64,000 nucleotides of DNA from Actinomycetota bacterium (GCA_040880705.1 JBBDHU010000001.1:315573-379572), one strand, 5' to 3'. Positions 3,851 through 63,914 are shown, numbered from the stretch's first letter. Translations and numbers: made by a program. The notes: generated by a model not told the origin, from the letters alone.

Positions 3851-3876
3851 CGCAAGGCAAGTCTTAGGAGCCCCCA

Positions 3877-5502: not shown

Positions 5503-5526
5503 GAACCGTTTGGTCTGCCTGAGAGA

Positions 5527-14211: not shown

Positions 14212-14260
14212 GCGCCTTCCACCTGCTACTTTCTGAGCCCCAGACCGAGGGCTTTCATCC

Positions 14261-15394
14261 ATGGCCGTAGAACCCAGGGAAGTAACCGATCGTGCTCGCT
14301 CCGAATGGCGTCCCAAGGCGACGCTGCCCGGAGACGCCTACCACCGGCCTGAAGTGTGGGAGCGCGAGAAGGAGCTGATCTTCCAGGCAGCGTGGTACTG
14401 CGTCGGTCGCGAGGAGGAGATCGCCGAGCCGGGCGACTTCATGGTGCGAGACGTCGCCGGGGAGGGCGTGCTGCTTGCTCGCGCGAAGGGCGAGAAGCTC
14501 AGAGCCTTCTACAACGTGTGCCGCCATCGCGGAACGCGGCTCTGCGACGGTGAGGGGCACGCGAAATCCAACGTGTTCGTCTGTCCCTATCACGCGTGGA
14601 CTTACGACACCGCCGGGAACCTTCTCGGCACTCCGAACGTTCACGAGGACGAAGGGTTCGACAGATCGTCCAACTCTCTTTGGCAGATGGCGGTAGAAGT
14701 ACAGGACGGATTCATCTACGTGAACATGTCGAGCGACCCGGAAACTCTGGGCGACTTCCTCTCACGCAACCCCGAAGGCGATCCCGCGGAACACACCCGC
14801 TGGGGATTGGACGAACTTCGTCTCGGTCACCGCATCGACTACGAGGTCGCCGCGAACTGGAAGATCATTCTCGAGAACTACAACGAGTGCCTGCATTGCC
14901 CGAGCATCCATCCGGAACTCGTGAGCCTCGTTCCGCTGTTCAAGAAGGGCCTTGTCGAGGGCGAGCGCGGGGCTGAGCTGGTGCACGGCGCACAGACGCT
15001 GTCCATGGATGGGACGACCAACCGCCCGCCCTTTCCGAGCCTCGAGCCCGAGGACTGCCGTGTTTACTTCGGCATGACGGTGTTCCCGACCTTCATGATC
15101 AACTACCAGCCGGACTACGTGATGACCTACCGGCTCGAACCTAGGGATCCGCTCAACACCTTGGTCATAAGCGAGTTCCTATTTCGCCCCGAGGTCATCG
15201 AGTCGGCGGATTTCGATCCCTCGGGTGTCGTTGACTTCTGGGATCTGGTCAGCCGCCAGGATTGGTCGGTGTGCGAACGGGCGCAAAAGGGTGTTCGCTC
15301 GCGCGCGTTTTCCAAGGGCGGGGTCTTCCCCTTCAACGACCGGTGGGTGCACGAATTCAACCGGCGCTATCGGGAGTCGATGGACGAGGGCTAG
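14261..15394 (+). CDS. Rieske [2Fe-2S] non-heme-iron oxygenase alpha subunit (GbcA / CntA / stachydrine-demethylase-like)
   Basis: Rieske motif CRHRGTRLC...CPYHAW, followed by a mononuclear-iron catalytic domain (NYNECLHCPSIHPEL). 377 aa. Confidence 0.8.
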   Translation: MAVEPREVTDRARSEWRPKATLPGDAYHRPEVWEREKELIFQAAWYCVGREEEIAEPGDFMVRDVAGEGVLLARAKGEKLRAFYNVCRHRGTRLCDGEGHAKSNVFVCPYHAWTYDTAGNLLGTPNVHEDEGFDRSSNSLWQMAVEVQDGFIYVNMSSDPETLGDFLSRNPEGDPAEHTRWGLDELRLGHRIDYEVAANWKIILENYNECLHCPSIHPELVSLVPLFKKGLVEGERGAELVHGAQTLSMDGTTNRPPFPSLEPEDCRVYFGMTVFPTFMINYQPDYVMTYRLEPRDPLNTLVISEFLFRPEVIESADFDPSGVVDFWDLVSRQDWSVCERAQKGVRSRAFSKGGVFPFNDRWVHEFNRRYRESMDEG

Positions 15395-15416
15395 ACTCCC
15401 GCCACTGGGGGCTTGA

Positions 15417-16565
15417 GTGGATCCGATCTCGGCCGACACAATCACGAACGACATCTACGCCGGGCCATTTCACGAGCGACAGAAGGCAGCCGGCGGAACT
15501 TTCTATGAGGACATGGGCGGGCTGTGGACGCAAGCCTTCTCCGATCCGGTCGGCGAATACTGGGCGGTCCGTCGCGGAACGGCCATATGGGACGTTTCTT
15601 CGCTGGTCAAGTTTCGGCTTACCGGTTCCGATGCGCTTGCCGCACTCGACCGCCTGACAACCCGGCGTCTCTCCGGTGCGGATCCCGGAGTCATACGTTA
15701 CGGCATGATTCTCGATGAACGGGGCCGGATGCTCGACGAGGGGACCTCGCTGGCCGTTTCGCCGACCGAGGCTTACTTCTTCGGCAACGACGAACGCGAG
15801 CGGTTCGTCGAGCACTTGAACTCTCACACGCGGGACTTGGAAGTCACGATCGAGAACGTGACCACGAGGATTCCGAACATCGCCGTACAGGGGCCGGGGT
15901 CCTACGCTCTGCTTTCAGCGCTCTCGGATACGGAATTCGCCGGGCTGGGGTGGTTCCGGTTCATCCCGCAGCCCGTTCGGATCGCCGGAGTGCCGGGATT
16001 GCTATCGCGAACGGGGTTCACCGGCGAACTCGGATACGAATTCTTCCTGCTCGACGAAGGTGAGGGCGCGGGCCGGCTGTGGGACGCGATCGTCGAGGCC
16101 GGAGCCGCGCCGATCGGCCTCGATGCGATCGAAATGCTGCGTGTGGAAGCGGGTTTGGTTATCCAAGAGGAGGACTACTTTCCCGGCGAAACGGATCCGT
16201 ACGACCTCTCGCTCGATTCGTTCATCGACATCGACGGGCACGCTTTCGTCGGGCGAGAAGGGGCCGCGGAGACGGCTACCGCTCCTCTCCGGCGGTTCAA
16301 GACGCTCGTGTTCGAGGGCGACGGTGTCCCCGACCCTGGGGAGCCGGTTACCAAGAACGGCGTCGTCGTGGGCGACGTGAGGAGCGCCGAGCGCACGCCC
16401 CGCTACGGCGCGATTGCGCTTGCCGTTTTGCAAAGTCGTTCGGCTCGGGAGGGCGACACGGTCGAGGTCGGCGAACGAACGGCCACCGTGCGGGGCCTTC
16501 CCATCGACGACCCGAAGAAGGAACGCCCGCGAAGCGATCCGCTCAATCCCAAGATGGCCGGTTAA
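15417..16565 (+). CDS. GcvT-family aminomethyltransferase-like protein (folate-binding; DmdA/GcvT/DMGO C-domain-like), copy 1
   Basis: GTG start 6 nt after CTGGGGG. GCV_T-type fold signatures (IWDVSSLVKFRLTGSDA, IAVQGP, SRTGFTGELGYEF, EMLRVEAG). Stop is 3 nt from the start of the next crtI-like gene. Confidence 0.75.
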   Translation: MDPISADTITNDIYAGPFHERQKAAGGTFYEDMGGLWTQAFSDPVGEYWAVRRGTAIWDVSSLVKFRLTGSDALAALDRLTTRRLSGADPGVIRYGMILDERGRMLDEGTSLAVSPTEAYFFGNDERERFVEHLNSHTRDLEVTIENVTTRIPNIAVQGPGSYALLSALSDTEFAGLGWFRFIPQPVRIAGVPGLLSRTGFTGELGYEFFLLDEGEGAGRLWDAIVEAGAAPIGLDAIEMLRVEAGLVIQEEDYFPGETDPYDLSLDSFIDIDGHAFVGREGAAETATAPLRRFKTLVFEGDGVPDPGEPVTKNGVVVGDVRSAERTPRYGAIALAVLQSRSAREGDTVEVGERTATVRGLPIDDPKKERPRSDPLNPKMAG

Positions 16566-16567
16566 AA

Positions 16568-18184
16568 GTGGCTGCCAACACCTACGACGCGATCGTGGTG
16601 GGCGGGGGACACAATGGCCTCGTCGCGGCCGCGTACCTGGCCAAGGCGGGGGCGCAGACCTTGGTTCTGGAGGCGCGTGAACGAACCGGAGGGGCGGCGG
16701 ACACCAGCTCCCCGTTCCCCGATCTCCCCGATGTGAAGGTCACCACGCTCTCGTATGTGATGAGCCTCATGCCCCCGTCGATCATTCGCGACCTGCAATT
16801 GGAGAACTTCGGATACAAGGTCTTCCCGATGGGCCCGACCTACGCGCCGCAGCCGGGCTCCGGCACCCTTCGGGTGAGCGAAGACGAGGGTCTTCGCGAG
16901 CGCGTGGCGAAGTTTTCGAAGAAGGACGCCGATGCGATCGGCGGCTGGGGCGAGTGGATAGAAAGAAGCGCGAACCTCCTCGGCCCGATCCTGATGCAGA
17001 CGCCCCCGCCGGTGGGCTCAACTGCGATCGGTGACCTGATCGAGCAGGCCAAGTTCGCTCTGAAGCTTCGAAAGGGGATGACCGAACGCCAGGCGGCAGA
17101 CATAACGAAGCTCTTCACGATGTCGGCGGCCGACCTGCTATCCGAATGGTTCGAGTCCGACATTGTGAAGGGCGCGCTTTCGACCGACGGCGTCATCGGC
17201 ACCTGGGCCGGTCCCGAGGAGCCGGGAACCGCGTACGTCCTGATGCACCACCTGGTCGGCGACCTCGGTGACGGGCAGATCTCGGAGTGGGGTTATCCCG
17301 AAGGGGGGATGGGAGCGGTCTCGCGGGCGATTCGCGCGTCGGCGGAGAGCTTCGGTGCGGATGTTCGCGTGGGCTCTCCGGTCGAGAGGATTCTCGTCGA
17401 GGACGGCCGCGCGACCGGGGCCGTTATCGAAGGCGGGGAAGAGCTTCACGCACCGGTCGTCGTCACCGCTTGTCACCCGAAGATCACCTTCCTGAAGCAG
17501 CTCGATCGCGGCGATCTTCCCGGAGACTTCGTGCGGGACATCGAGAACTGGAAGACGCGAAGCGGCACCGTGAAGATCAACATGGCCCTGTCGAGGCTGC
17601 CGGAATTCCGTGACGACCCGGGCGCCGGACCGGAAATCCAAAGCGCCTCGATCATGATCGCGCCGAATCTCCGCTACCTGGAGCGGGCCTTCGAGGAGGC
17701 AAGAGGCGGCAAGCCGGCGACGGCTCCTTTCTCCGAGACATGTATCCCAACCGTGTTGGACCACACACTCGCTCCCGAGGGAACTCACGTCATGTCGATG
17801 TTCACCCAGTGGGTGCCCCACGAGTGGGCGAACGAACGCCACCAGGACGATCTGGAGGCATACGCCGACCGGTTGGTCGACATCCATGAGGACTTCATGC
17901 CGGGGTTGAAGGACTCCGTCCTGGGGCGCCAGGTGATCGGTCCCTGGCAGATGGAGAACGAATTCAACCTGATCGGCGGGAACATCTTTCACGGCGAGCT
18001 GGCGCCGAACCAGCTTTTTCACATGAGGCCGGCGCCCGGGTACGCGAACTACAGGACGCCGATCCGCGGGCTCTATCAGGCGTCGTCGGCAACTCACGCG
18101 GGCGGGGGCGTCACGGGCATGCCGGGACATCACGCGGTTAGGGAGATTGCCCGCGACCGCAAGCTTCGACGCAGCAAGGGTTAG
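16568..18184 (+). CDS. CrtI/COG1233-family FAD-dependent oxidoreductase, paralog 4
   Basis: GTG start (VAANTYDAIVVGGGHNGLVAAAYLAKAGAQTLVLEARERTGGAADT). TYSYVMSLMPPSI and FSKKD motifs. The tracked ORF carries a 163-aa spurious upstream extension. Confidence 0.75.
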   Translation: MAANTYDAIVVGGGHNGLVAAAYLAKAGAQTLVLEARERTGGAADTSSPFPDLPDVKVTTLSYVMSLMPPSIIRDLQLENFGYKVFPMGPTYAPQPGSGTLRVSEDEGLRERVAKFSKKDADAIGGWGEWIERSANLLGPILMQTPPPVGSTAIGDLIEQAKFALKLRKGMTERQAADITKLFTMSAADLLSEWFESDIVKGALSTDGVIGTWAGPEEPGTAYVLMHHLVGDLGDGQISEWGYPEGGMGAVSRAIRASAESFGADVRVGSPVERILVEDGRATGAVIEGGEELHAPVVVTACHPKITFLKQLDRGDLPGDFVRDIENWKTRSGTVKINMALSRLPEFRDDPGAGPEIQSASIMIAPNLRYLERAFEEARGGKPATAPFSETCIPTVLDHTLAPEGTHVMSMFTQWVPHEWANERHQDDLEAYADRLVDIHEDFMPGLKDSVLGRQVIGPWQMENEFNLIGGNIFHGELAPNQLFHMRPAPGYANYRTPIRGLYQASSATHAGGGVTGMPGHHAVREIARDRKLRRSKG

Positions 18185-28655: not shown

Positions 28656-28669
28656 GAGGGGAGTTCGGG

Positions 28670-29703: not shown

Positions 29704-29722
29704 CTCCCGCGTGCCCCCGCCG

Positions 29723-30859: not shown

Positions 30860-30868
30860 GCAGGTAGT

Positions 30869-31881: not shown

Positions 31882-31888
31882 AACCGGG

Positions 31889-31916: not shown

Positions 31917-31926
31917 GACTTTTACC

Positions 31927-31980
31927 ATGCAGACCAAGGGCGACCAGACGCACGCGCACGGCCTGCTGCTTATCCGATAG
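31927..31980 (+). CDS. Putative leuA leader peptide MQTKGDQTHAHGLLLIR (three consecutive Leu codons then Ile)
   Basis: 17-codon ORF between the promoter and a terminator hairpin upstream of leuA. The control codons are Leu-rich. Confidence 0.5.
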   Translation: MQTKGDQTHAHGLLLIR

Positions 31981-32011
31981 GCGCACGCGGGCCTTGCCCT
32001 GCGCGCGCCGA

Positions 32012-32034
32012 CCCCTCCACGCGAGGGGTTTTTT
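32012..32034 (+). terminator. Intrinsic terminator / attenuator hairpin upstream of leuA
   Basis: CCCCTC cacgc GAGGGG followed by TTTTTT, 20 nt before the leuA GTG start. Confidence 0.55.
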
Positions 32035-32055
32035 CATGTCCGGAGGTGACAAGAG

Positions 32056-49990: not shown

Positions 49991-51181
49991 GTGAGGCGGT
50001 CCGCCGCCATTGCCGCGGCGCTGGTGATCCTCGCCCTTCAAGCATGCACCAGTGCTGTCGAGCCGTCCGGGACGGGTGAGCCGACGGTTCCCGTGGAACC
50101 GGAGCGAACCACGACTGAGGTCACAACGGGCCTGTCGCTCACGGAGATCACCGATCCTGCAGGCCCCTACAAGATCTTCGTATTGACTATGACTCCCTCA
50201 TCGGTGCTGACGCTCGACGTGGGGCTTCCCCGCAAGTCGCTCGGTGGACAAGGTCCGCTTACTCGGATCGCCGCCCGGCACGACGCGATCGCGGCGGTGA
50301 ACGGGGACTACGGGACGTCTTCCGGTCGCCCGCTTCATCTGTTCGCCATGGACGGCGAGCTGTACCAAACGACGCTGATCAACCGCTCCGGGAGGAACTT
50401 CGCCATGTCCTCGGACGAGCGCCGCGCGTATTTCGGCAAGCCCGATGCGTCGATCGTGATCGAACGCCCCTTGGCCGGGCGGACGATCGATGTTCAGCGC
50501 TGGAACGATGGGGCGCCCGCGCCGGCGCAGGTCGCCGGCTACACGGACCGGGCGGCGGGTCTCGAACACCCGCCGGAGAACGCATGCTCGGCGCGACTGA
50601 TGCCTGACGGTGGGCCGGACTGGGAATCCGGTGAACAAGGGGTGCGCCGTGCATTCACCGTGGTGAAGGTCCGCTGTGGGGAAGACCCGGTGGATGTTGA
50701 ACCCGACACGGTCGTTGTTTCGGCGTCGATCAATGGGAGGCGAGCCGCCGAGGTCGGGGATCTTCGGATGGGGGAGCGCGTCGTTTTGACCTGGTCGATC
50801 GGCTGGCCGGGGGTGCTCGATGCCATCGGCGGCAGCGCGCTGTTGATCGAGGACGGCGAGATCGTCGCCGAGAAATGCCACGGCCACTACGAGTGCTGGC
50901 GGCATCCCCGGACGGGGGTCGGTATCACCGCCGACGATCGGATCCTTTTGGTCGTGGTCGACGGCCGCCAGGAGGACTACTCGATCGGGATGCGGCGGGA
51001 GGAATTCGCCGAGCTTATGCAGGAACTGGGCGCGGTTGATGCGCTCGCTCTCGACGGCGGCGGATCGAGCACGATGGTTATCGAGGACGGGCTCGTGAAC
51101 CATCCCCCGGATGGAGAGGAACGCCCGATCATGTCCGCACTGATGATCCTGGCCGGCCCCGATCCGGACGAGAAGCTCTAG
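49991..51181 (+). CDS. Phosphodiester glycosidase-family (NAGPA/DUF2233) lipoprotein
   Basis: GTG start right after the previous stop. Lipobox LALQAC. AAVNGDY and ALDGGGSSTM motifs. Confidence 0.6.
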   Translation: MRRSAAIAAALVILALQACTSAVEPSGTGEPTVPVEPERTTTEVTTGLSLTEITDPAGPYKIFVLTMTPSSVLTLDVGLPRKSLGGQGPLTRIAARHDAIAAVNGDYGTSSGRPLHLFAMDGELYQTTLINRSGRNFAMSSDERRAYFGKPDASIVIERPLAGRTIDVQRWNDGAPAPAQVAGYTDRAAGLEHPPENACSARLMPDGGPDWESGEQGVRRAFTVVKVRCGEDPVDVEPDTVVVSASINGRRAAEVGDLRMGERVVLTWSIGWPGVLDAIGGSALLIEDGEIVAEKCHGHYECWRHPRTGVGITADDRILLVVVDGRQEDYSIGMRREEFAELMQELGAVDALALDGGGSSTMVIEDGLVNHPPDGEERPIMSALMILAGPDPDEKL

Positions 51182-51675
51182 CTCCTTGCGTCCGTCGTCC
51201 GGCGACGCTCACTCGATCGCTGAGCGAGTGCCGCGTATCGCCAGGTGTCCTTTCGGATCTTGAGGACGGTCAGTGTCTCGACGCGGGCAATACCGGGCAC
51301 TCGGCGAATCTCGCGCAGAACCCTCAAAAGGTCGTCGTTGTCTCGGCAGATCAGCTCGCAGAGGATGTCGAAAACTCCGCTGCATTCCGCGGCGTACGGG
51401 ATCTCCGGGATGTCCGCGATCGCCTCGATCACGCGATCGAGCGCCGGTCCTTGTACTTGCAGGCCCAGGTAGACCTCGATCAACCCTAAGTTCGCGGCGT
51501 CAACGTCGATGACGAACTTCACGAGTCTGCCGCGCTCCATGCGGTTCACCCTGGCGCGGACCGTCGCGTCTGATACTCCTAGCTCCTCGGCGATCCTCGA
51601 AAACGGCATCCGCCCGTCGACCTGGAGCTGCTCGAGGATCCCGGTGTCCAGCTCGTCGAGGCGTGGATCGGCCAT
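51178..51675 (-). CDS. Lrp/AsnC-family transcriptional regulator
   Basis: LDELDTGILEQLQVDGRMPFSRIAEELGVSDATVRARVNRM HTH, followed by a RAM/ACT-like domain. Confidence 0.85.
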   Translation of the reverse strand: MADPRLDELDTGILEQLQVDGRMPFSRIAEELGVSDATVRARVNRMERGRLVKFVIDVDAANLGLIEVYLGLQVQGPALDRVIEAIADIPEIPYAAECSGVFDILCELICRDNDDLLRVLREIRRVPGIARVETLTVLKIRKDTWRYAALAQRSSERRRTTDARS

Positions 51676-51737: not shown

Positions 51738-52835
51738 TTGCCTCTGGAAAGGCCGCTATCATTGGCGATGATGGATCGAAAGGCCTTGCGATTCGGCATT
51801 TTGTTCGGCTCGCTCTTCGTCGCGATCACTCTGACCTCAACTCTGTTTCCCCAGGCGGGCGCGCAGGAGGGCGAAGGCACGCGGATCGCGGCCGTGGGGG
51901 ACCTCGTCTGCGCCTTCGGTGCCCGCACGGAACGCCACGTCGCGGGCGCGGCGAAGGTCCACGGCAAGTGCGAACCCGGGAGGGTCGCGCGTTTGGTGAC
52001 GGAAGGTGGATACGACGCCTTCCTGCCGCTCGGCGACCTTCAGTACTCGTACGGCGGCTACTGGCGTTATGTCACTTACTGGGACAAGTTCTACGGTTCG
52101 GTGAAGGACATCACCCGGCCGGCGGCCGGAAACCACGAGGCCTACAACGATTTCTCCGGCTACGTCCGCTACTTAGGTTCGAAGCGAACGCACTTCCCCG
52201 ACAACTACGAGACATACCGGCCGGGCGACGAGCCCAGGCGCGTCACCGGCTACTACTCCTACAACATGGGAGGGTGGCACCTCATCTCGATCAACTCCCA
52301 GCTTTGCATCAACAAGATGTGGAATCTCAAGACCCGCTGGACGACGCCGATCCCCGGCGGCGGATGCGAGCCGGGTGACCCTCAATACGAGTGGCTGAAG
52401 CGCGACCTATCGCGGCATTCGAACGACGAATATCCGTGCACGATCGCGTACTTCCATCACCCGATGTTCAAGGTGACTAAGTACAAGCTCCCCGGGAACA
52501 ACGTCCAAGGCCCGCTCTACGAGTTACTTCACGGGGCGAATGCCGACGTCTTGCTCACCGGCCACCAGCACAACTACCAGCGTTGGGGCCCGATCGATCC
52601 CGAGGGGAATGCCGATCCGAACGGCATGATGCAGTTCATCGTGGGAACGGGCGGCGACTCGTACCAGCCCCTGCCGGACGAGAGCGAGTGGCCCGAGGAA
52701 GTGGCCACAGCCAACACGCAGACCTACGGCATCCTCGAGATGACTCTTCGTGAAGGGGCCTACGACTTCGAGTTCATCGCGGCCCCCGGCCAGCCGGTCG
52801 ACTTCGAGGACTCTGGCAGCGCGGACTGTCACTAG
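51738..52835 (+). CDS. Calcineurin-like metallophosphoesterase (purple-acid-phosphatase-like), secreted
   Basis: GDLQYSYGG, GNHE, FHHPMF, GHQHNYQRW metal-ligand motifs. The more likely start is the internal MMDRKAL about 30 nt downstream. Coordinates follow the ORF-track frame; my manual count disagreed by 1 nt. Confidence 0.7.
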   Translation: MPLERPLSLAMMDRKALRFGILFGSLFVAITLTSTLFPQAGAQEGEGTRIAAVGDLVCAFGARTERHVAGAAKVHGKCEPGRVARLVTEGGYDAFLPLGDLQYSYGGYWRYVTYWDKFYGSVKDITRPAAGNHEAYNDFSGYVRYLGSKRTHFPDNYETYRPGDEPRRVTGYYSYNMGGWHLISINSQLCINKMWNLKTRWTTPIPGGGCEPGDPQYEWLKRDLSRHSNDEYPCTIAYFHHPMFKVTKYKLPGNNVQGPLYELLHGANADVLLTGHQHNYQRWGPIDPEGNADPNGMMQFIVGTGGDSYQPLPDESEWPEEVATANTQTYGILEMTLREGAYDFEFIAAPGQPVDFEDSGSADCH

Positions 52836-52851: not shown

Positions 52852-54456
52852 ATGGCGGCGAATCAATACGACGCGGTAGTCATCGGCGGAGGCCATAACG
52901 GCCTGGTTGCGGCCGCGTACCTCGCCAAGTTCGGCAAAAGGGTCGTCGTGCTGGAAGCCCGGCACAAGACAGGGGGCGCGACGGACACGTCGCAACCCTG
53001 GCCGGAGGCTCCGGAGTTCAAGGTGACGACCCTTTCGTACACGATCAGCCTTATGCCTCCCTACATCATCAACGACCTGAGGCTCCCCGAGTTCGGCTAC
53101 AAGGTGCTGCCGCTGTCGATGGGCTATCTCCCGCTTCCCGGCGGAGGTTCGATAAAGGAGGGTGGGGACGAGCGCCAAGTATGGGAGACCTACGCCAAGT
53201 TCTCGAAGGCGGACGCCGACAACCTCGGCCCGTATTTCGAGTGGATCGACCGAATCGGCAAGATGCTCAAGCCCCTCCTCGACCGGACGCCGCCCCATGT
53301 CGGTTCGAAACGCTTGAAGGACGTGCGCGATCAAGCGCAACTACTGTGGATGCTCCGAAAAGACGTCGACGAAAGCACCGCCGCCGACATCACGCGACTC
53401 TTCACGATGAGCGTGTCCGATCTCCTGGACCGCTGGTTCGAGAACGACACGATCAAGGGTTTCATGGCGGTGAACGGGATCATCGGAACTTGGGCCGGGC
53501 CGATGGAGCCGGGCACGGCGTATGTCCTGATGCACCATTCGATCGGCGAGGAAACCGAGGGGCAGGTGGCATCTTGGGGCCAGCCCGAGGGCGGAATGGG
53601 CGCGATTGCCGACGCCATGCGCCGTTCGGCGGAGGCGAGCGGGGCCGAGGTCCGCGTCAACTCGCCCGTCGAGAAGGTCTTGATTCAAAACGGGAGGGCG
53701 ACCGGCGTCGTGATCAAGGGGGGCGAGGAAGTGTCGGCGAAGGTTGTAATCACCGCCTGCCACCCGCAGATCACCTTCCTCGATCAGATCGATCGGGCCG
53801 ACCTGCCGGCGGAGTTCGTCAACGACATCGAGCACTGGCGGACCCGTTCGGGAACCGTGAAGATCAACCTGGCGCTCGCCGAGCTGCCCGAGTTCACGGC
53901 CGACCCGGGATTCGATCCGGACGTGCACGGATCGGCGATACAGATCCTCGACGACATGGAGTATCTCGAGCGCGCTTTCCAGGAGGCGCGAAGCGGCAAG
54001 GGAGCTGAGCTGCCGTTCTCGGACTGCGAGATCCCGTCGGTCTGGGACAAGACGCTCGCCCCCGAGGGCAAGCACGTCATGTCCTTGTTCTCCCAATGGG
54101 TTCCGAAGGAATGGGCCGACGAGGATCACACCGAGGATCTCGAGAGGTACGCGGACCGGCTGATCGACCGGTTCAACGCGGTCGCGCCCAACTTCAAGGG
54201 TTCGATCCTTCACCGGCAGATCATCGGTCCGAGGGAGATGCAGGAGGAATACAACCTGATCGGCGGCAACATCTTCCACGGTGAGCTGGCGGTCGATCAA
54301 CTGTTCCACATGCGCCCGGCGCCGAAATTCGGCGACTACCGAACGCCGATCAAGGGCCTGTATCAGGCATCGAGCGGAACGCACGCGGGGGGCGGCGTAA
54401 GCGGCCTGCCGGGGCACCACGCGGTGCGTGAGATTCGAAAAGACCGAGCACTCTAA
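52852..54456 (+). CDS. CrtI/COG1233-family FAD-dependent oxidoreductase, paralog 5
   Basis: MAANQYDAVVIGGGHNGLVAAAYLAKFGKRVVVLEARHKTGGATDT. TLSYTISLMPP, FSKAD. C-terminal LYQASSGTHAGGGV. Confidence 0.8.
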   Translation: MAANQYDAVVIGGGHNGLVAAAYLAKFGKRVVVLEARHKTGGATDTSQPWPEAPEFKVTTLSYTISLMPPYIINDLRLPEFGYKVLPLSMGYLPLPGGGSIKEGGDERQVWETYAKFSKADADNLGPYFEWIDRIGKMLKPLLDRTPPHVGSKRLKDVRDQAQLLWMLRKDVDESTAADITRLFTMSVSDLLDRWFENDTIKGFMAVNGIIGTWAGPMEPGTAYVLMHHSIGEETEGQVASWGQPEGGMGAIADAMRRSAEASGAEVRVNSPVEKVLIQNGRATGVVIKGGEEVSAKVVITACHPQITFLDQIDRADLPAEFVNDIEHWRTRSGTVKINLALAELPEFTADPGFDPDVHGSAIQILDDMEYLERAFQEARSGKGAELPFSDCEIPSVWDKTLAPEGKHVMSLFSQWVPKEWADEDHTEDLERYADRLIDRFNAVAPNFKGSILHRQIIGPREMQEEYNLIGGNIFHGELAVDQLFHMRPAPKFGDYRTPIKGLYQASSGTHAGGGVSGLPGHHAVREIRKDRAL

Positions 54457-54466
54457 GGAGGACGAA

Positions 54467-55648
54467 TTGTCAGCACAGGAAGACGTCTGGCCGAGCACCG
54501 ACCTCTACTTCGGGCCGTGGTACCGGCGTTCGCCATATTTCGAGGCGACACTGCGCGCCGGAGCCAAGGCCTACGACATCTACAACCACATGCTCTTGCC
54601 CGGCTACTACGACGACCCGAACGTCGAGTACGAAGCGATGATCAACGACGTCGTCGTCTGGGATGTCGCGGTTGAGCAGACCGTGGAAATCGCCGGCCCC
54701 GACGCCGATCGTTTGATCGACAGGATCACCTGCCGCGATTTGACGAAGTGCGCGGTCAAGCAGGGCAAGTACATGCTCGTTACCGCGCCGGACGGCGGCA
54801 TCGTCAACGACCCCGTTCTTCTGCATGTCGGCGAGAACCGCTGGTGGATGCAGCTCGCGGATTCCGACGCCGGACTGTACGCGCTCGGCGTCGGACAGGC
54901 AGGGGGATACGATGCGCAGGTCTCGTTTCCTCACGCGTACCCGATGCAGGTGCAAGGTGCGAAGTCCGCGAAGACGCTCGAGAAGCTGGTCGGGCCAGCC
55001 ATCTACGACCTCAAGTACTACTGGTGCGACTTCTTCGAGATCGAAGGCATTCCCGTTCTCATAAGCCGGACCGGCTACACGGCCCTGCCGGGCTTCGAAG
55101 TGAACATCCTCGAAATGGAACGCGGAACTCAGCTCTGGGACGCGGTGTTCGCGGCCGGGGAGGAGTTCAACATCCGCGCCGCCGCGCCGAACATGGCCAG
55201 GCGCATCGAGGCCGGGATCATGAACTACGGCTCCGACATGGACATCGAGAACAATCCCTTCGAGATCATGGGCTTCGAGCGTCTCGTCGAGGAACAGAGT
55301 CAGGACTACATCGGCAAGGAGGCTCTCGAACGGATTCGCCGCGAGGGTGTTAGCCGCAGGCTGGTCGGAATCGGGATCGACGGCGACGAGATCGAGGCGG
55401 ATCCCGAGGACTTCTGGCCGGTTCGCTCCGGAGGAAAGGAAGTCGGCAAGGTGACGGACGCCGTCTGGTCCCCGCGCCTGAAGAAGAACATCGGTTACGT
55501 ATGGGTGCCCGTTGAATTGTCCGAGCCGGGAAACAGGCTGGAGATCGAGTCAGAGAACGGTTCGCTCACGGGGACGACGGCGGCGATCCCGTTCGTCGAC
55601 CCGAAGAAGGAAGTCCCGGCCGGCTCGCTCGCTTCGCAGAAAACCTGA
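54467..55648 (+). CDS. GcvT-family aminomethyltransferase-like protein, copy 2
   Basis: TTG start 6 nt after AAGGAGG. LYFGPWYRRSPYFEAT... GCV_T fold (ISRTGYTALPGFE). 393 aa. Confidence 0.75.
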   Translation: MSAQEDVWPSTDLYFGPWYRRSPYFEATLRAGAKAYDIYNHMLLPGYYDDPNVEYEAMINDVVVWDVAVEQTVEIAGPDADRLIDRITCRDLTKCAVKQGKYMLVTAPDGGIVNDPVLLHVGENRWWMQLADSDAGLYALGVGQAGGYDAQVSFPHAYPMQVQGAKSAKTLEKLVGPAIYDLKYYWCDFFEIEGIPVLISRTGYTALPGFEVNILEMERGTQLWDAVFAAGEEFNIRAAAPNMARRIEAGIMNYGSDMDIENNPFEIMGFERLVEEQSQDYIGKEALERIRREGVSRRLVGIGIDGDEIEADPEDFWPVRSGGKEVGKVTDAVWSPRLKKNIGYVWVPVELSEPGNRLEIESENGSLTGTTAAIPFVDPKKEVPAGSLASQKT

Positions 55649-55658
55649 GGAGGTTTTG

Positions 55659-56834
55659 TTGACAGAAATAGGAGGACCCGCGAAGGCGCCGCCTGCGGCC
55701 GGCCGCACGAGGCTGTACTTCGGTCCGTGGTATCAGAAGTCGCCCTTCTTCGAGGCGACGAGGCGCGCCGGATGCTCCGCTTACGACATCTACAACCACA
55801 TGTATCACCCGAACTCTTACGGCGATCCCGAGGAGGAGTACCAGGCCCTGATCAACGACGTGACGCTCTGGGACGTGGCGGTCGAGCGAATCGTCGAGAT
55901 CTCCGGACCGGACGCGACGGAGCTCACCAACATGCTGACCTGTCGCGACCTCACCAAGTGCGATGTCAAACAGTGCAAGTACATGCTTGTGACTGCGCCC
56001 GACGGCGGGATCGTCAACGATCCGGTCTTGCTTCGGATCGAAGAGAACAAGTGGTGGATGGCGCTGTCGGATTCCGACGCAGGTCTCTATGCGCTCGGCG
56101 TGGCGGCCGAATCGGGTCTGAACGCCGAGGTCACACACCCCGAGGTCTATCCGGTTCAGGTCCAGGGGCCGAAATCGAAGGAAACGATGCGCGACCTGTT
56201 CGGAGACTGGGTCCTCGACATGAAGTACTACTGGTGCGAGGAGACGGACCTCGATGGCATACCGGTCGTGATCAGCCGTACCGGCTGGACGGCAGTCGTC
56301 GGTTACGAGATCTACCTGAGGGACCCGTCTAGAGGCGACGACCTCTGGGAGAAGATCCTCGAGGCCGGGAAGCCACACAATATACGAGTTACGCCGTCAT
56401 CCGACATCCGCCGCATCGAGGCGGGTATTTACGACTACGGATCCGATTTGTCGATCGACACAAACCCCTTCGAGGCGATGGGACTGGAACGCTTGGTCGA
56501 AGAGCAGGAGGCCGACTACATCGGCAAGGACGCCCTGGAAAGGATTCGCCGGGAGGGCGTGACGCGCAAGATAGTCGGGATCGAGATCGAGGGCGACCCG
56601 CAGGGGCAGCCGCCCGACCACCTGCCGGCGTTCAGCGGCGGCGAACGGGTCGGCTACGTGACCGACATCGCCTACTCGCCCCGGCTCGAGAAGAACATCG
56701 GGTACGTCTGGGTTCCGATCGATCTGGCCGAACCGGGCAACGAGCTCGCGGTTGAATCACCGCAAGGAACGCTCAAGGGCAAGACCGCCTCCGTTCCGTT
56801 CATCGACCCGAAGAAGAAGGTTCCGGCCCAGTAG
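55659..56834 (+). CDS. GcvT-family aminomethyltransferase-like protein, copy 3 (tandem paralog of copy 2)
   Basis: TTG start 5 nt after GAGGAGG. LYFGPWYQKSPFFEAT... Colinear with copy 2 throughout. Confidence 0.75.
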   Translation: MTEIGGPAKAPPAAGRTRLYFGPWYQKSPFFEATRRAGCSAYDIYNHMYHPNSYGDPEEEYQALINDVTLWDVAVERIVEISGPDATELTNMLTCRDLTKCDVKQCKYMLVTAPDGGIVNDPVLLRIEENKWWMALSDSDAGLYALGVAAESGLNAEVTHPEVYPVQVQGPKSKETMRDLFGDWVLDMKYYWCEETDLDGIPVVISRTGWTAVVGYEIYLRDPSRGDDLWEKILEAGKPHNIRVTPSSDIRRIEAGIYDYGSDLSIDTNPFEAMGLERLVEEQEADYIGKDALERIRREGVTRKIVGIEIEGDPQGQPPDHLPAFSGGERVGYVTDIAYSPRLEKNIGYVWVPIDLAEPGNELAVESPQGTLKGKTASVPFIDPKKKVPAQ

Positions 56835-56897
56835 GGAACTCCTGCCCCCGAGACGGTGTAGTAGTTACGTACTCATATCTCGGTGGGGGGCTGACCA

Positions 56898-57443
56898 CTG
56901 GAGGATGCGGAGCTCGTCGACCGGGCAAAGCGAGGTGACGTCGTTGCCTACGAGCAGCTCGTGCGGCGCTACCAGGACGACGCGATCCGGCTGGCGACGC
57001 TATTGACCGGATCCAGGCAGGACGCCGAGGACGCGGCACAGGAGGCGTTCGTCAAAGCCTATTTCGCGCTGGACCGCGTGCGCAAGGATACCTCGTTCCG
57101 GCCTTGGATCCTTCGCATCGCTGCGAACGAGGCGCACAACCGCCGGCGTTGGAATCGCAGCCGCGAATCCGTCGCGCTGACCGGCGATCACCCCTCGGGG
57201 GATGCAGCCCCGTCTCCCGAGGAGGTGGTCGTCGATCGCGAAAGCGCGGACGCCGTCCTCGCTTTGGTGTCCGGCCTCAGAGAGCAGGAACGGCTTGTCG
57301 TGGGTTGCCGTTATCTGCTCGGTCTCACCGAAAATGAGACGGCGGAGGCGCTCGGCATCCGGAATGGAACCGTGAAGTCCAGATTGTCGCGAGCGTTGGC
57401 ACGTCTGCGCGAGGCTGCTGAAGAGGAGGGAGGGCTTGCTTGA
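56898..57443 (+). CDS. ECF-type RNA polymerase sigma-70 factor; start codon unresolved
   Basis: Region 2 and region 4 signatures (DAEDAAQEAFVKAYFAL, LGLTENETAEALGIRNGTVKSRLSRA). The conserved N-terminal ELVDRAKRGDVVAYEQLVRRY is encoded in frame upstream of the first canonical start (GTG 56961). The only start-like codon after the in-frame TGA at 56892 is CTG 56898. Confidence 0.6.
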   Translation: MEDAELVDRAKRGDVVAYEQLVRRYQDDAIRLATLLTGSRQDAEDAAQEAFVKAYFALDRVRKDTSFRPWILRIAANEAHNRRRWNRSRESVALTGDHPSGDAAPSPEEVVVDRESADAVLALVSGLREQERLVVGCRYLLGLTENETAEALGIRNGTVKSRLSRALARLREAAEEEGGLA

Positions 57444-58777: not shown

Positions 58778-58987
58778 TCGACGCAGTATGGACGGCGAGC
58801 GAGATATCACTCGCGCGCACCTGGTGCGCCGCTTCGCAATCGGGATCCTGCTCATGGGGGGACGGGGTTAGGGCTTCATCTGGTCAAGGTCCTGCTCGAC
58901 GACCTCGGCGGGACCGTCTCCGTCTCGGGCAACCTTGGCGAGGGGAGCACCTTCACCGTCCGGCTGCCCCGCGCGCGGCCCAGTTAG
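58778..58987 (+). pseudogene. Remnant of a histidine-kinase HATPase_c C-terminus (about 70 codons, no HisKA/sensor part)
   Basis: Frame reads ...[44 protein letters not shown]-stop, which is the G2 box and C-terminal tail of the HATPase_c domain. It is preceded by in-frame stops and overlaps the 3' end of betA on the other strand. Confidence 0.45.
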
Positions 58988-60642
58988 TCGCGCGCATACC
59001 GGTAGAAGCCGACTCCCTCCGCAGGCAGCGGCGTGTTTCCGAGGATCAGGTCGGCAGCTTTTTCCGCCACCATCATCACCGGTGCGTAGATATTGCCGTT
59101 CGTCACATAGGGCATCACCGATGCATCCACGACGCGAAGTCCCTCCAGGCCTTGCACCTTCATGGCGAGGGGGTTCACCACCGACATGTCGTCCACTCCC
59201 ATCCGCGCGGTGCACGAGGGGTGCAAAGCGGTTTCGGCGTCACTCGCGACCCACTCGAGGATCTGCTCGGGTGTCGAGACGCCCGGCCCGGGTGAAAGCT
59301 CCCCATCGTTGAACGGATCGAACGCCGGCTGCGTGAGGATCTTGCGGGCGACGTGGACGGCTTCCACCCACTCCCTGCGGTCCTGTTCCGTCGATAGGTA
59401 GTTGAAGACCAGTGCGGGGTGTTCCCTCGGGTCTGCACTCTTGATCTTTATCGAACCGCGAGCGTCCGAGTACATCGGCCCCACGTGCACCTGGTACCCG
59501 TGAGCGCTTGCGGGGGCCGATCCGTCGTATCGCACCGCGATCGGCAGGAAATGGAACATCAGGTTCGGGTATGCGACCTCGTCGTTGCTTCGAACGAACC
59601 CTCCCGCCTCGAAATGGTTCGTCGCGCCCGGTCCCTTCCGGAAGAACAGCCACTGGAAGCCGACCCAGGGGCGCCATCTCCATTTCATGTAAGGCGCGAC
59701 CGAGACGGGCTGCTTGCACGCGTATTGAACGTAGACCTCCAAGTGATCCTGAAGGTGTTCGCCGACGCCCGGCAGATCGTGGACGACCTCGACTCCCAAT
59801 CCTTCGAGTTCGTGGGCGTTCCCGACCCCCGAGACCTGCAGAACCTGAGGTGAGTTGATCGCCCCACCGCAAAGAACGACTTCCCCGGCCTCCACCGTCT
59901 GGGCCGAACCCCTGCGCCGTTCGTACTCGACGCCTACGGCGCGCGTGCCGTTGAAGAGGATTCTCGAGACGAAGGCCCGCGTCTCGACTTCCAGGTTTTT
60001 CCGCTCCATCACGGGATGCAGGTACGCCCTTGCGGCGGACAGTCGCCGGCCGTTGTGGATGTTGCGGTCGAAGGCCGCGAAGCCCTCCTGCTGGTAGCCG
60101 TTGACGTCTTCCGTGATCGGGTATCCCGCTTGCTGAACCGCCTCGAAGAACGCCCCGAACAATGGAGTGGTGGCCGGACCTCGCTCGAGAACCAACGGCC
60201 CGGCGTGCCCGCGGAACTCGTCGTCGCGTGCGGCCGCGAGGCAGCTCTCCATTCGCTTGAAGTAGGGGAGACAGTGCGCGTAGTCCCAGGTCTCCATGCC
60301 GGGGTCAGATGCCCACCGCTCGTAATCCATCGGGTTCCCGCGCTGGAAGATCATGCCGTTGATGCTGCTGGAGCCGCCGAGCACCTTGCCCCTCGCGTGA
60401 TAGATGCGCCTGCCGTTCATGTGGGGCTCGGGCTCGGACTCGTATTTCCAGTCGTAGAACTTGCTTCCTATCGGAAACGGCAAGGCCGCCGGCATGTGTA
60501 TGAAGACGTCCCAGATGTAGTCCGGGCGCCCGGCCTCCAGAACCAGAACGCTGTTCGAGGAATCCGCACTAAGGCGGTTCGCCAGCGCGCATCCGGCCGA
60601 ACCTCCGCCGATGATCACGAAGTCGTAACTCTTCGGCGCCAT
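58984..60642 (-). CDS. betA: GMC-family choline dehydrogenase
   Basis: [23 protein letters not shown] motif. GMC signatures ([15 protein letters not shown]-terminal HPSCTARMG...VVDASVMP). Confidence 0.85.
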
Positions 60643-60827: not shown

Positions 60828-61871
60828 GTGCGGGCGGTGGAGGAAGCGTCGTCGCCTGATGTGACGGTCTCGTGCCGGAACGCCTGGAAGGTCTACGGCC
60901 CCGATCCGGAGCGCATCGTGGGCTCCTCGGACGCCGACTTGCCGAGAGGCGAACTTCTCGAAAAGACCGGCTGCGTCGTCGCCGTTCGCGACGTCTCCTT
61001 CGAAGTTGCAACCGGGGAGGTCTTCGTCGTGATGGGCTTGTCGGGATCCGGCAAGTCCACGTTGGTACGCATGATCAACCGTATCCACGAGCCCACCGAG
61101 GGCGAAGTCCTGATAGACGGCGAAGACCTGCTCGAGGCCGGCAAGGAGAGGCTGCGCGACATCCGCCGCCAGAAGATAAGCATGGTGTTCCAGCACTTCG
61201 GGCTTCTGCCGCACCGCCGGATCGTCGAGAACGTCGCCTTCGGCCTGGAGATACAAGGAATGGACAAAGACGAGCGGACCGTCTCGGCAGGGGCGGTCCT
61301 GAACAAGGTCGGTCTCGAGGGGTGGGGCCAGTCCTTCCCGGACGAGCTTTCCGGCGGAATGCAACAGCGGGTTGGCCTTGCCCGCGCTCTTGCCAACGAT
61401 CCCGAGATCCTGCTGTTCGACGAGCCGTTCAGCGCCCTCGATCCGCTGATCCGGCGCGACATGCAAGACGAGGTGCTGAAACTCCAGCGGGAAGTCCGAA
61501 AGACGATGATCTTCATCACCCACGACCTGGCAGAGGCGCTCAAGCTCGGTGACCGGATCGCGATCATGAAGGACGGACGGTTCGTCCAGGTGGACACGCC
61601 CGAGCGCGTGGTCAGCCACCCGGCGAACGACTACGTCGCGGATTTCATCCGAGATGTGCCGCGGGCGCACGTTCTGACCGCGCAGTCGATCATGCGGCCG
61701 GCGGACGGGTTGCAGGGCGACGGTCCGACTGTTTCCCCGGAGACGGTCGTCCAGGACCTGATCCCCATGGTCGCGCAGGCGGACCTGACGATTCGTGTCG
61801 TGGACAACGGCAACGTACTGGGCGTCGTGGACCGGGGCGCGGTCATGTCGGCACTCGTCGAGGAGCGCTAG
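60828..61871 (+). CDS. proV: Glycine betaine/proline-type ABC transporter ATP-binding protein (ProV/OpuAA-like)
   Basis: Walker A GLSGSGKST. LSGGMQQRVGLARAL signature. Walker B ILLFDEPFSALD. C-terminal CBS-like tail. GTG start. Confidence 0.85.
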   Translation: MRAVEEASSPDVTVSCRNAWKVYGPDPERIVGSSDADLPRGELLEKTGCVVAVRDVSFEVATGEVFVVMGLSGSGKSTLVRMINRIHEPTEGEVLIDGEDLLEAGKERLRDIRRQKISMVFQHFGLLPHRRIVENVAFGLEIQGMDKDERTVSAGAVLNKVGLEGWGQSFPDELSGGMQQRVGLARALANDPEILLFDEPFSALDPLIRRDMQDEVLKLQREVRKTMIFITHDLAEALKLGDRIAIMKDGRFVQVDTPERVVSHPANDYVADFIRDVPRAHVLTAQSIMRPADGLQGDGPTVSPETVVQDLIPMVAQADLTIRVVDNGNVLGVVDRGAVMSALVEER

Positions 61872-63914
61872 GTGGCGGTAGCACCTCCCCGCGCCCGGCT
61901 GCCGGTGGCAACGGGCGAAGTCCCGTTGCTGCGGGCCGAACCGAGTCCTTGGCGTCGCAGGGCCGTATGGGCGGTGGCCGTCGTGGCCGTCATCTGGGCG
62001 GGACGGGCGATGTTCGCGCCCGGGTTCCCGCAACGATGGGTGGTCGACGTAACGGGATGGTTCGACGCGTTTCGGGATTGGGCGATCCTGAATCGCACTA
62101 CGAGCCCGCTCTTCGTGTACTTCCTCACACCGATCGAGGACGCCGCAACCGCGGTGGTGACGTCGACGGTCACCCTTCTGGAACGAATGACCTGGACCGG
62201 CCTGGTCGTGACCGCCTCGGCGATCGCAGGATTGGTCGCGGGATGGCGCATGGCCGTTCTCACCTTCGCGGGAGTGCTGGCCTTCGGCGTGCTGGGCGTC
62301 TGGGAGGAGAGCCTAATCACGCTGGCCCTGGTGCTCGTCGCGGTGATAATCGCCCTCATCATCGGCATTCCGGTCGGCATCTGGGCCGGGCGCAGGCCCC
62401 GAGTCGAGAGAACTCTTCGGCCGATCCTCGACGCGTTGCAGACGATACCGGCCTACTCGTATCTTCTCCCCGCGGTGCTGCTGTTCGGCATCGGCGAGGC
62501 CCCCGCTTTGATCGCAACGATGGCGTTCGCGTTGCCCCCGGCAATCAGGCTGACGGCGCTCGGGATCCGAAACGTCCCGAAGACATCCTTGGAAGTCGCC
62601 GATGCATTCGGCTCCACGCCGAGGCAGTCCCTTCGCCTGGTTCAGGTGCCGCTGGCAAAGCACTCGATCATGCTGGGCGTCAACCAGACGATCATGATGG
62701 CTCTCGGGCTGGTCGTGATCGCGGCGTTCGTCGGCGCGGGCGGGCTCGGGCAATCCGTGCTCGACGGGTTGCAGCGGTTGAACGTCGGAGAGGCGTTGAA
62801 CGGCGGCATCGCGATCGTCGTGATGGCCATCGTGCTCGATCGGGTGACGACCGCGTGGAGCCGTCGCGATCGCAAGCGGCTGCGGCCTCTGGTCGTGGCC
62901 GGGCGCACCCTGACGAGGCGGCGGGTGCTCATTGCTGCGGTGCTCGTGTCGGTCGCCGCGGTCGTCGTGGGGCGCCAGGTCCTGCAGCAGCAGGATTTCC
63001 CGGAGGGCTTGGAGGTGTCCGTGGCCACCCCCGCGAACGCCGTGGTCGAGTGGTCCCAGACGACCCTGGGCGGCGTCACCAGCGCAACCAGCGACTTCAT
63101 GCTGATCTACCTATTGGACCCGCTCGAGCGCCTGGCCGTCGATCTGCCGTGGTGGGTAATCGGCGGAGGCGTCGCGCTCGCGGCCCTGCGGATGTCCGGC
63201 GGCCGGCTCGCGGTGGGGCTGTTCGCCTGCGTCGCCGCGCTCGGGTCGCTCGGCATGTGGAACTTCGCCATGGCGACTGTGAGCCAGGTCCTTGTGGCCG
63301 TCGCCATCACGATCGTCGTGGCGATCCCCCTGGGAATACTCGCCGCGAAGAGCGATGCATTCGAACGGGTATCGAAACCGATCCTCGACGCCATGCAGAC
63401 GATGCCGGCGTTCGTGTACATCGTTCCGGTGTTGTTTCTGGTCGAGCCCGGCCGCGTTCCGGCGATCATCGCATCGTTCGTCTACGCGCTTCCGGTCGGA
63501 ATCCGGCTGACGAACCTGGGGATCCGTCAGGTCCCGAATGAGATCGTGGAGGCGGCGAAGGCGTTCGGCGCGACCTCCTGGCAGGTGCTGCGCAAGGTGG
63601 AGCTGCCTTTGGCCAAGCCGTCGATTCTGCTCGGAATCAACCAGACGATTATGATGGTGCTCTCAGTCGTGATCATCGCGGGTTTGATAGGCGCTGCCGG
63701 ACTCGGCCAGGAGGTCGTGTTCGCCCTGGGCAAGCAGCAGATCGGCCGGGGCGTGGTCGCCGGTGTCAGCATCCTGCTCCTCGCCATTGTCCTCGACCGG
63801 CTCACGCAGGCCATGGGCGCGGCGGCACGCACGATGCGGGGCCCCGTGGGGATCGGCATTGGGTGGTGGACCCGCGTAAAGGCGATCACAGTAGGAGCAC
63901 CGGATAACGGTTAG
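61872..63914 (+). CDS. proW: Glycine betaine-type ABC permease, tandemly duplicated/fused (two ProW-like BPD_transp_1 domains in one 680-aa protein)
   Basis: Two internal repeats each containing the EAA-like loop ([32 protein letters not shown] and [32 protein letters not shown]). GTG start 1 nt after the proV stop. Confidence 0.8.

Follow-up and report, generated by a model that had tools for sequence, protein, structure and literature searches.

A PYROXD2-family flavoprotein gene and two DmdA-like GcvT genes form an operon-like unit in an Actinomycetota genome, with a proposed role in folate-linked demethylation

A stretch of 64,000 nucleotides (nt) from an Actinomycetota bacterium (GCA_040880705.1, JBBDHU010000001.1:315573-379572), referred to hereafter as the window, carries on its plus strand three consecutive genes that encode a flavin adenine dinucleotide (FAD) flavoprotein of the PYROXD2 family and two proteins of the GcvT family, GcvT-a and GcvT-b. 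The flavoprotein gene (52852..54456; 534 amino acids, aa) begins with ATG at 52852 and ends with TAA at 54454-54456. A Shine-Dalgarno (SD) site, AAGGAGG (54455..54461, +), shares bases with this stop codon and lies 5 nt from the TTG start of GcvT-a at 54467. GcvT-a (54467..55648, +; 393 aa), a predicted DmdA-like folate-dependent one-carbon (C1) transferase of a variant clade, ends with TGA at 55646-55648, and the same pattern follows: a second site, GAGGAGG (55647..55653, +), shares bases with the stop codon and lies 5 nt from the TTG of GcvT-b (55659..56834, +; 391 aa), also a predicted DmdA-like folate-dependent C1 transferase, whose TAG ends at 56834. An earlier note on this DNA had described the order flavoprotein, GcvT, GcvT with short gaps, TTG starts after GGAGG-type sites and two colinear GcvT proteins, and all three points held. 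Both gaps, read directly from the sequence, are exactly 10 nt, the spacers are 5 nt at both starts, and GcvT-a and GcvT-b are 62% identical. NCBI gene calls were taken from contig JBBDMK010000031.1 of an Actinomycetota metagenome-assembled genome (MAG), GCA_040878365.1; a stretch of this contig, read in reverse complement, gives the window. They agree on the starts and on lengths of 534, 393 and 391 aa. The TTG starts are further supported because homologues of GcvT-a and GcvT-b are typically 388-394 aa long. The three genes are a translationally tight, operon-like unit.

The window contains five paralogous flavoproteins of this kind, at 2228, 3877, 12589, 16568 and 52852 (tblastn; 42-63% pairwise identity), the number given in the earlier note, where they were called CrtI-like. 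That label proved right for the fold and wrong for the family. The protein encoded at 52852 carries a GxGxxG FAD motif, and its AF2 model (pLDDT 85.4) has the CrtI-type three-domain FAD fold. With this model, Foldseek returned 4REP as the best match (E 2e-24, TM-score 0.76/0.83) and also 4DGK, at 15-18% identity. Carotenoid-enzyme cut-offs were failed by all five proteins: the 52852 protein scored 252.2 bits against the CrtO model NF045689 (cut-off 1000) and 89.3 bits against TIGR02734, crtI_fam (cut-off 238.1), and the scores of the other four were similar. The window flavoproteins instead resembled mammalian PYROXD2 from end to end, at 37-41% identity. Against mouse PYROXD2 (P0344), the 52852 protein reached 37% (341 bits, E 3e-115) and the 12589 protein 41% (395 bits, E 6e-136). 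An alignment of 28 bacterial members has 106 invariant columns, and the mouse and gibbon proteins carry the same residue in 80 of these. The flavoprotein search returned 1,869 clusters at E ≤ 1e-30, and a flatworm PYROXD2 (347 bits) ranked in the top 150 among 1.84 billion representatives. A human PYROXD2 sequence served only as bait to fetch source-named database entries, and the comparisons used those entries. We assign the window flavoproteins, on this similarity, to the PYROXD2 family as bacterial members. No PF01571 domain was listed for any of the 120 best flavoprotein homologues, that is, no flavin/GcvT fusion was seen among them, and the window genes are likewise separate.

PYROXD2 is a mitochondrial protein whose enzymatic function is not known (PMC8777681), and our literature searches found none described. 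A missense single-nucleotide polymorphism in PYROXD2 accounts for about 50% of the variance in plasma N6-methyllysine and 48% of that in N6,N6-dimethyllysine (PMC8109053), and the locus is also associated with urinary trimethylamine and plasma dimethylamine (PMC3169529). One database sequence (P0387; locus L171, 1437-3887) is an 816-aa fusion of an N-terminal glutathione-dependent formaldehyde-activating (GFA) domain with a PYROXD2 domain.

Three GcvT-family genes were found in the window by tblastn, at 15417 (GcvT3), 54467 (GcvT-a) and 55659 (GcvT-b). GcvT-a and GcvT-b are each only 24-25% identical to the product of the 15417 gene. All three proteins scored above the Pfam gathering threshold for GCV_T (PF01571; 121-166 bits) and GCV_T_C (PF08669; 34-59 bits). 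None reached the cut-offs of the GcvT models TIGR00528 (235.85) and PRK00389 (300), with scores of 125.2 and 153.6 bits for GcvT-a, 135.9 and 169.5 for GcvT-b, and 109.6 and 171.7 for GcvT3. No gcvH or gcvP was present among the window genes scanned with Pfam. The best model for GcvT-a and GcvT-b was DmdA (PRK12486; 320.9 and 314.2 bits, below the equivalog cut-off of 410), and DmdA was also their best crystal-structure match (PDB 3TFH, 245 bits for GcvT-a). For GcvT3 the best model was the GcvT-like C-terminal domain of the trimethylamine N-oxide demethylase Tdm (224 bits). GcvT-a and GcvT-b classify as DmdA-like folate proteins, not as glycine-cleavage T proteins.

Nine residues of DmdA with assigned roles (PMC7487153) were mapped on the window proteins by motif rather than by structure: D59, N107, D108, S126, R194, W197, E204, Y206 and R239, in 3TFH numbering. 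By this mapping GcvT-b has all nine (DNDSRWEYR) and GcvT-a has seven, with the changes W197Y and Y206N. D59, N107, D108, S126, R194, E204 and R239 are present in both, so the folate-binding residues, whose loss would have counted against the earlier note, are kept. The change at Tyr206 is characteristic of the clade: Asn or Asp occupies this position in 88 of 88 GcvT-a-type proteins. The full DNDSRWEYR signature was found in 54 proteins designated GcvT-x and in 6 GcvT-b-like proteins. A GcvT-a-like gene was present in 80 genome loci, and about 57 of these have the order Amidohydro_3, (Rieske), GcvT-x, GcvT-a', (MetV-like DUF5981, MTHFR), where parentheses mark genes that are not always present. 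In a neighbour-joining tree GcvT-b branched outside the whole GcvT-a clade, from which it follows that GcvT-a and GcvT-b are old paralogues and not the product of a recent tandem duplication; the earlier note had spoken of a tandem duplication. By the motif mapping, a full-signature paralogue beside a Tyr206Asn variant is a widespread rule that the pair in the window repeats. Such a pairing is compatible with a heterodimer or with labour divided over two steps, but not with simple redundancy. The earlier suggestion of a hetero-oligomer or divided roles gains support from the 88 of 88 proteins with Asn or Asp at Tyr206 and from the full-signature partner in the window and in about 57 other genomes.

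Two features of the relatives are described here in their own right. The cluster found in about 57 Actinomycetota MAGs (L009-L083 and L166-L168; for example L166, 5417-12568), in which the Rieske protein is GbcA-like, is apparently uncharacterised; with its Amidohydro_3, Rieske, GcvT-x, GcvT-a', MetV and MTHFR genes, it looks like a demethylation pathway that forms methyl-THF (THF, tetrahydrofolate). In locus L125 (8400-11108, -) a GcvT-x-like gene at 78% identity, which converges on a PYROXD2-like gene, has a longest open reading frame (ORF) of 902 aa, the first ~550 residues of which have no Pfam match and may represent either an artefact of ORF extension or an uncharacterised N-terminal domain.

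Recurrence of the flavoprotein next to a GcvT gene had been put forward as a sign of functional coupling. We compared 499 kb of DNA flanking PYROXD2-like genes, from 80 metagenome loci picked only for the presence of such a gene, with 902 kb of outer flank of 80 actinobacterial genome loci as a control. GcvT-family genes numbered 12 in the PYROXD2-like flank and 0 in the control, and 10 of the 12 lay within 400 nt of the PYROXD2-like gene. Genes for GbcA-like Rieske oxygenases numbered 14 and 0, respectively. The enrichment of GcvT genes (12 against 0.3 expected; Poisson P ~3e-16) is weakened as an argument by the facts that the counted loci are not phylogenetically independent and that the control DNA came from another collection. 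Neighbour-joining trees resolved at least three separate clade pairings of PYROXD2-like and GcvT genes. Three lineages, each with its own gene order, place a flavoprotein gene of the CrtI5 clade beside a gene of the GcvT-a clade: the window; L007, L169 and L170 (divergent); and L027 (reversed). A member of the CrtI2-like clade is followed by a DmdA-like GcvT at no more than 65 nt in L103, L108, L145 and L147. CrtI3-like tandem pairs adjoin a T-protein/Tdm-like GcvT3 in the window and in L106, L154, L162 and L163. With this enrichment and at least three pairings, the adjacency goes beyond chance, as the earlier note had argued. Our literature searches found no paper on a PYROXD2-like/GcvT gene pairing.

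In L162 (930-5967), and also in L106, L154 and L163, tandem genes of two different PYROXD2-like clades stand with a T-protein/Tdm-like GcvT. The only candidate enzymes beside this GcvT in L162 are the PYROXD2-like proteins and an AhpC/TSA peroxiredoxin, and the peroxiredoxin hints at production of H2O2. PYROXD2-like genes also co-occur with genes for GbcA-like Rieske N-demethylases and their reductase.

The earlier note had treated the three-gene unit as the second copy of a module. The first module (12589..18184, +) consists of a PYROXD2-like gene (12589-14211), a gene for a GbcA-like Rieske oxygenase (14261-15394), the T-protein/Tdm-like GcvT3 (15417-16565) and a second PYROXD2-like gene (16568-18184). 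Comparison of identities and phylogeny ruled out en-bloc duplication of the two modules: the order is inverted (GcvT3 then flavoprotein in the first; flavoprotein, GcvT-a, GcvT-b in the second), and the GcvT partners, at 24-25% identity, belong to different subfamilies. Because neither module is a duplicate of the other, recurrence of the pairing carries more information. The remaining two PYROXD2-like genes (2228-3850 and 3877-5502) precede a gene for an ADP-forming acyl-CoA synthetase (5527-7623) in a further plus-strand group (2228..7623). Such a synthetase gene follows PYROXD2-like genes in about 25 loci other than that of the window (among them L093, L096-L098, L100-L102, L104, L105, L107, L109-L111, L113-L117, L151 and L156); these loci frequently also encode, close by, PotD-like (polyamine-type) binding proteins, ABC ATPases, class-III aminotransferases and Rieske oxygenases.

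The interpretation that we favor, with a probability of roughly 0.55, is that the unit is catabolic, that it demethylates a methylated ammonium compound, drawn probably from the betaine, choline or methylated-amine classes, and that it passes the C1 unit to THF. What we infer about function draws on sequence and gene context, and on these grounds the link to methylated amines made in the earlier note is plausible. Acting on a tertiary or secondary amine, the flavoprotein would oxidise the C-N bond of an N-methyl group to an iminium or a formaldehyde-level C1 unit, and the GcvT-family proteins would load C1 units onto THF. GcvT-b, which has the full DmdA signature, would most likely form 5-methyl-THF by direct transfer of a methyl group from an 'onium substrate. 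GcvT-a, of the Tyr206-to-Asn clade, could be the partner of GcvT-b or the acceptor of the C1 product of the flavoprotein. This division of roles between GcvT-a and GcvT-b is the weakest step of the proposal. A mixed scheme, in which GcvT-b would remove a methyl group from a quaternary substrate and the flavoprotein would oxidise the next methyl group with GcvT-a as partner or acceptor, is the most economical because the GcvTs are DmdA-like, DmdA is redox-neutral, and MTHFR genes follow many GcvT-a orthologues.

An oxidative, formaldehyde-level reaction of the flavoprotein is suggested by five observations: the pairing of PYROXD2-like genes with T-protein/Tdm-like GcvTs, relatives of proteins that accept a C1 unit made by an enzyme; the absence from L162 of any enzyme beside the GcvT except the PYROXD2-like proteins and the peroxiredoxin; the co-occurrence with GbcA-like Rieske N-demethylases and their reductase; the human genetic data, which point to N-methyl amines; and the one natural GFA-PYROXD2 fusion. 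In Tdm, the C1 unit from the demethylating site is handed to the GcvT-like THF site (PMC13619132). Stand-alone T-protein/Tdm-like GcvTs would need a partner that produces the C1 unit. Extended to the whole family, human PYROXD2 included, the idea is that its members might be flavin-dependent oxidative N-demethylases of small methylated amines that deliver a formaldehyde-level product to a C1 acceptor, THF by way of GcvTs in bacteria and GFA in the one fusion. This extension is tentative. If it is true, the bacterial operons would be a split and non-homologous equivalent of the dehydrogenases of dimethylglycine and sarcosine, and the design of a direct assay for human PYROXD2 would follow.

Several observations weigh against a demethylation unit with oxidative C1 transfer. 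DmdA needs no flavoprotein, is redox-neutral and makes 5-methyl-THF (PMC7487153). A PYROXD2-like neighbour was present in only 4 of 24 window-type GcvT-a loci and absent from 20, and the CrtI5-type loci L084-L089 and L136 have no GcvT gene. The adjacency is thus recurrent and independent of gene order, but facultative. In about 32 genomes the GcvT-a orthologue adjoins MetV-like and MTHFR genes and no flavoprotein gene, which fits methyl transfer better than capture of formaldehyde. An ADP-forming acyl-CoA synthetase is the commonest partner of PYROXD2-like genes. Enoyl-CoA hydratase genes follow the CrtI5-type flavoprotein in L007, L169, L170 and L086, with an SDR gene as well in the first three, which suggests action on the carbon skeleton or on a CoA ester. 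The nearest folds to the flavoprotein are C-C desaturases. Finally, one sequence alone shows the GFA-PYROXD2 fusion, and its 13.7-kb contig, with a G+C content of 41%, is probably eukaryotic; GFA-domain genes occurred in none of the bacterial loci of the comparison set.

Many of these points would be expected if the enzymes catalyse consecutive steps with no hand-off of a C1 unit. GcvT-a and GcvT-b would then methylate THF from a sulfonium or quaternary ammonium carboxylate, yielding 5-methyl-THF, and the flavoprotein would dehydrogenate the product or its CoA ester, like DmdC in the demethylation of dimethylsulfoniopropionate (DMSP). DmdA is the nearest model and the nearest structure, and the nine signature residues of GcvT-b include the Trp that is reported to be substrate-specific. 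The MetV-like and MTHFR genes after the GcvT-a orthologues (~32 genomes) agree with this scheme and parallel metF, which accompanies ligM in Sphingobium SYK-6. The enoyl-CoA hydratase and SDR genes, the acyl-CoA synthetase and acyl-CoA dehydrogenase genes that adjoin other PYROXD2-like copies, and the desaturase-like fold are in keeping with it too. It does not account, however, for the pairing of PYROXD2-like genes with GcvT3 proteins of the T-protein/Tdm-like kind; these are not methyltransferases, and in some loci the two have no further enzyme close by. Genes for a CoA ligase, enoyl-CoA hydratase and MTHFR are absent from the unit in the window, and human PYROXD2 genetics indicates N-methyl amines as such (PMC8109053). 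On balance we regard consecutive steps of this kind as the main alternative, though an unlikely one.

Chance or permissive adjacency, with the flavoprotein and the GcvTs in unrelated pathways, is very improbable. Most relatives of either gene lack the adjacency and both families are multi-copy in such genomes, as this explanation would predict, but it is opposed by the 12 GcvT genes against 0.3 expected, by the 10-nt gaps with stop codons overlapping SD sites, and by an adjacency that survives rearrangements and spans three clade pairings. Another reading, which we also consider very improbable, takes 5-methyl-THF, as an N-methyl tertiary amine, to be the substrate: the flavoprotein would convert it to methylene-THF and so stand in for MetV and MTHFR. 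GcvT-a-type genes occur with MetV and MTHFR (~32 loci) or with a PYROXD2-like gene (4 loci) and never with both, and no MTHFR gene was found in the window or near the PYROXD2-anchored loci. Yet most window-type GcvT-a loci have neither neighbour, PYROXD2-like genes mostly occur without a GcvT and with polyamine-type binding proteins, aminotransferases and acyl-CoA synthetases, and the human data implicate free methylated amines. A literal reading of the best NCBIfam names, CrtO and GcvT/DmdA, and of the CrtI-like fold, as a carotenoid desaturase or ketolase with glycine-cleavage T proteins, has next to no chance, given scores of 252 against 1000 (CrtO), 89 against 238 (crtI_fam) and 125-170 against 236-300 (GcvT) and the failure to find other carotenoid genes, gcvH or gcvP among the window genes scanned.

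Systems that link oxidative N-demethylation to a folate site of the GcvT fold are already known: dimethylglycine oxidase (DMGO), dimethylglycine dehydrogenase (DMGDH), sarcosine dehydrogenase (SARDH), SoxA of heterotetrameric sarcosine oxidase, and Tdm. In the first four, oxidation of an N-methyl group by the flavin is followed by uptake of the C1 unit as methylene-THF at a GcvT-fold site, which parallels our proposal, and GcvT-a matches the GcvT domains of these enzymes (PDB 5L46, 4PAB, 1PJ5) at 81-101 bits. In DMGO, DMGDH, SARDH and MABO a DAO-type flavin domain is fused to the GcvT part, whereas the window has a separate PYROXD2/CrtI-type gene and DmdA-like GcvTs. The closest characterised relative of both GcvTs, the DMSP demethylase DmdA of Pelagibacter ubique (3TFH), works alone, paired with neither a flavoprotein nor a second paralogue; the window GcvTs score below the DmdA cut-off, belong to a soil actinobacterium and, in GcvT-a, carry Y206N and W197Y. 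Mammalian PYROXD2, of the same family as the window flavoproteins, is mitochondrial and has no described folate partner. CrtI, CrtD and CrtO share the fold of the window flavoprotein, but identities are 15-18%, their cut-offs were failed and no carotenoid gene context was seen.

Two further GcvT systems are relevant. LigM and DesA of Sphingobium SYK-6 are THF-dependent O-demethylases of the GcvT family that act on aryl methyl ethers, form 5-methyl-THF and are encoded in a cluster with an MTHFR gene. The clustering of LigM/DesA with MetF parallels the Rieske, GcvT-x, GcvT-a', MetV, MTHFR cluster of the relatives, but similarity to the window GcvTs is weak (39-57 bits) and the window has no MTHFR gene. 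In Tdm, formaldehyde is channelled to a GcvT-like THF site (PMC13619132), and GcvT3 of the window resembles the C-terminal domain of this enzyme. Unlike the unit in the window, however, Tdm has no flavoprotein: its GcvT domain is fused to a demethylating domain built on a Zn-dependent DUF1989 core.

The genes around the unit offer candidates for its regulation and its substrates. Upstream and divergent lies a gene for an AsnC/Lrp-type regulator (51178..51675, -; HTH_AsnC-type and AsnC_trans_reg in Pfam), which is a candidate local regulator. A gene for a secreted calcineurin-like phosphoesterase (51771..52835, +; Pfam Metallophos, with an N-terminal signal-peptide-like segment) stops 16 nt before the flavoprotein gene; it may be the first gene of the transcript, and it is not conserved beside the pair in relatives. 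A promoter and terminator scan of 51.0-59.2 kb gave no signal above shuffled expectation, and an imperfect hairpin 3' of the GcvT-b stop (dG -33 kcal/mol, z = -1.7) was not significant. No Rfam element was found in 51.0-57.2 kb, hence no glycine or THF riboswitch. Among the 24 window-type GcvT-a loci, clustering of neighbours gave no dominant conserved partner; most neighbours were regulators and membrane proteins.

Downstream are genes for an extracytoplasmic function (ECF) sigma factor (56898-57443, +; Sigma70_r2/r4 in Pfam, annotated start a CTG codon), a candidate anti-sigma factor (57440-58159, +; 239 aa, one transmembrane segment, no Pfam match) and an anchored cupredoxin (58197-58730, +; signal peptide, C-terminal anchor and copper-site motif). 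Pfam and the transmembrane segments bear out the sigma factor, a single-pass membrane protein and the cupredoxin, and leave the anti-sigma factor of the earlier note a candidate. The regulatory or redox link proposed with them was not supported, as the trio is absent beside the flavoprotein-GcvT pair in relatives that keep the pair, and the three genes are probably a separate unit. A GGAAC sequence directly 3' of the GcvT-b stop, in the gap at 56835-56897, may serve as a -35 element of the ECF type. In 5 of the 24 window-type loci (L041, L046, L057, L059, L073) an ECF-type sigma factor of 352 aa, extended at its C-terminus, is encoded one or two genes from GcvT-a; it is only 27% identical to that of the window, and its position may be due to chance, since sigma factors are numerous in such genomes.

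Farther downstream are the choline dehydrogenase gene betA (58984..60642, -; NCBIfam TIGR01810, 839.5 bits, cut-off 732) and coding sequence for an ABC transporter ATPase and a fused permease (60852..63914, +; Pfam ABC_tran and BPD_transp_1). An OpuAC-type binding protein and an aldehyde dehydrogenase (Pfam OpuAC and Aldedh) are encoded just past the end of the window. With betA, an OpuAC-type transporter and an aldehyde dehydrogenase nearby, glycine betaine and its demethylation products are the first substrate candidates. In the proposed scheme, these genes would supply glycine betaine from choline.

Other parts of the window showed features apart from the unit. A SAM-I/IV riboswitch (RF01725; 43926-44046, +; 49.1 bits, gathering score 41.1) has no obvious plus-strand gene directly 3'; the next gene, for a DEAD-box helicase, is on the minus strand (44111-45361), and the gene upstream encodes a protein of the SAM-methyltransferase fold (42898-43659, +). 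A gene at 47656-49989 (+) encodes a 777-aa fusion of an APH-type kinase and a class-III aminotransferase-like part (PRK06148, 775 bits, cut-off 1128) and is followed by an NAGPA-domain gene. This fusion resembles kinase/phospho-lyase pairs acting on hydroxylysine or ethanolamine. Between the two modules lies a block for branched-chain amino acid biosynthesis (21876-36226 and 39566-40354) that comprises ilvD, a PALP enzyme, ilvBN, ilvC and a pair of LeuA-like paralogues, at 32056 and 34277; in or near it are also genes for a saccharopine-dehydrogenase-like protein (24931-26340) and for acetolactate decarboxylase.

Compared with the known demethylating systems, what is new here is that the flavin partner is a separate protein of the PYROXD2/CrtI type, that the folate partners stand alone and in this unit are DmdA-like, and that the two GcvTs are a fixed combination, one with the full signature and the other a variant. 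Some of the metabolite associations at the human PYROXD2 locus (N6-methyllysine, dimethyllysine, trimethylamine and dimethylamine) rank with the strongest in the genome, and biallelic variants cause a severe infantile disease. Bacterial relatives of 37-41% identity that recur near folate C1-transferases and Rieske N-demethylases suggest a testable reaction class for this orphan human enzyme, and soluble bacterial proteins are available for such tests. For soil microbiology, the genes would point to a widespread and uncharacterised route, present in hundreds of Actinomycetota MAGs, by which methyl groups of osmolyte-type amines may enter the folate pool.

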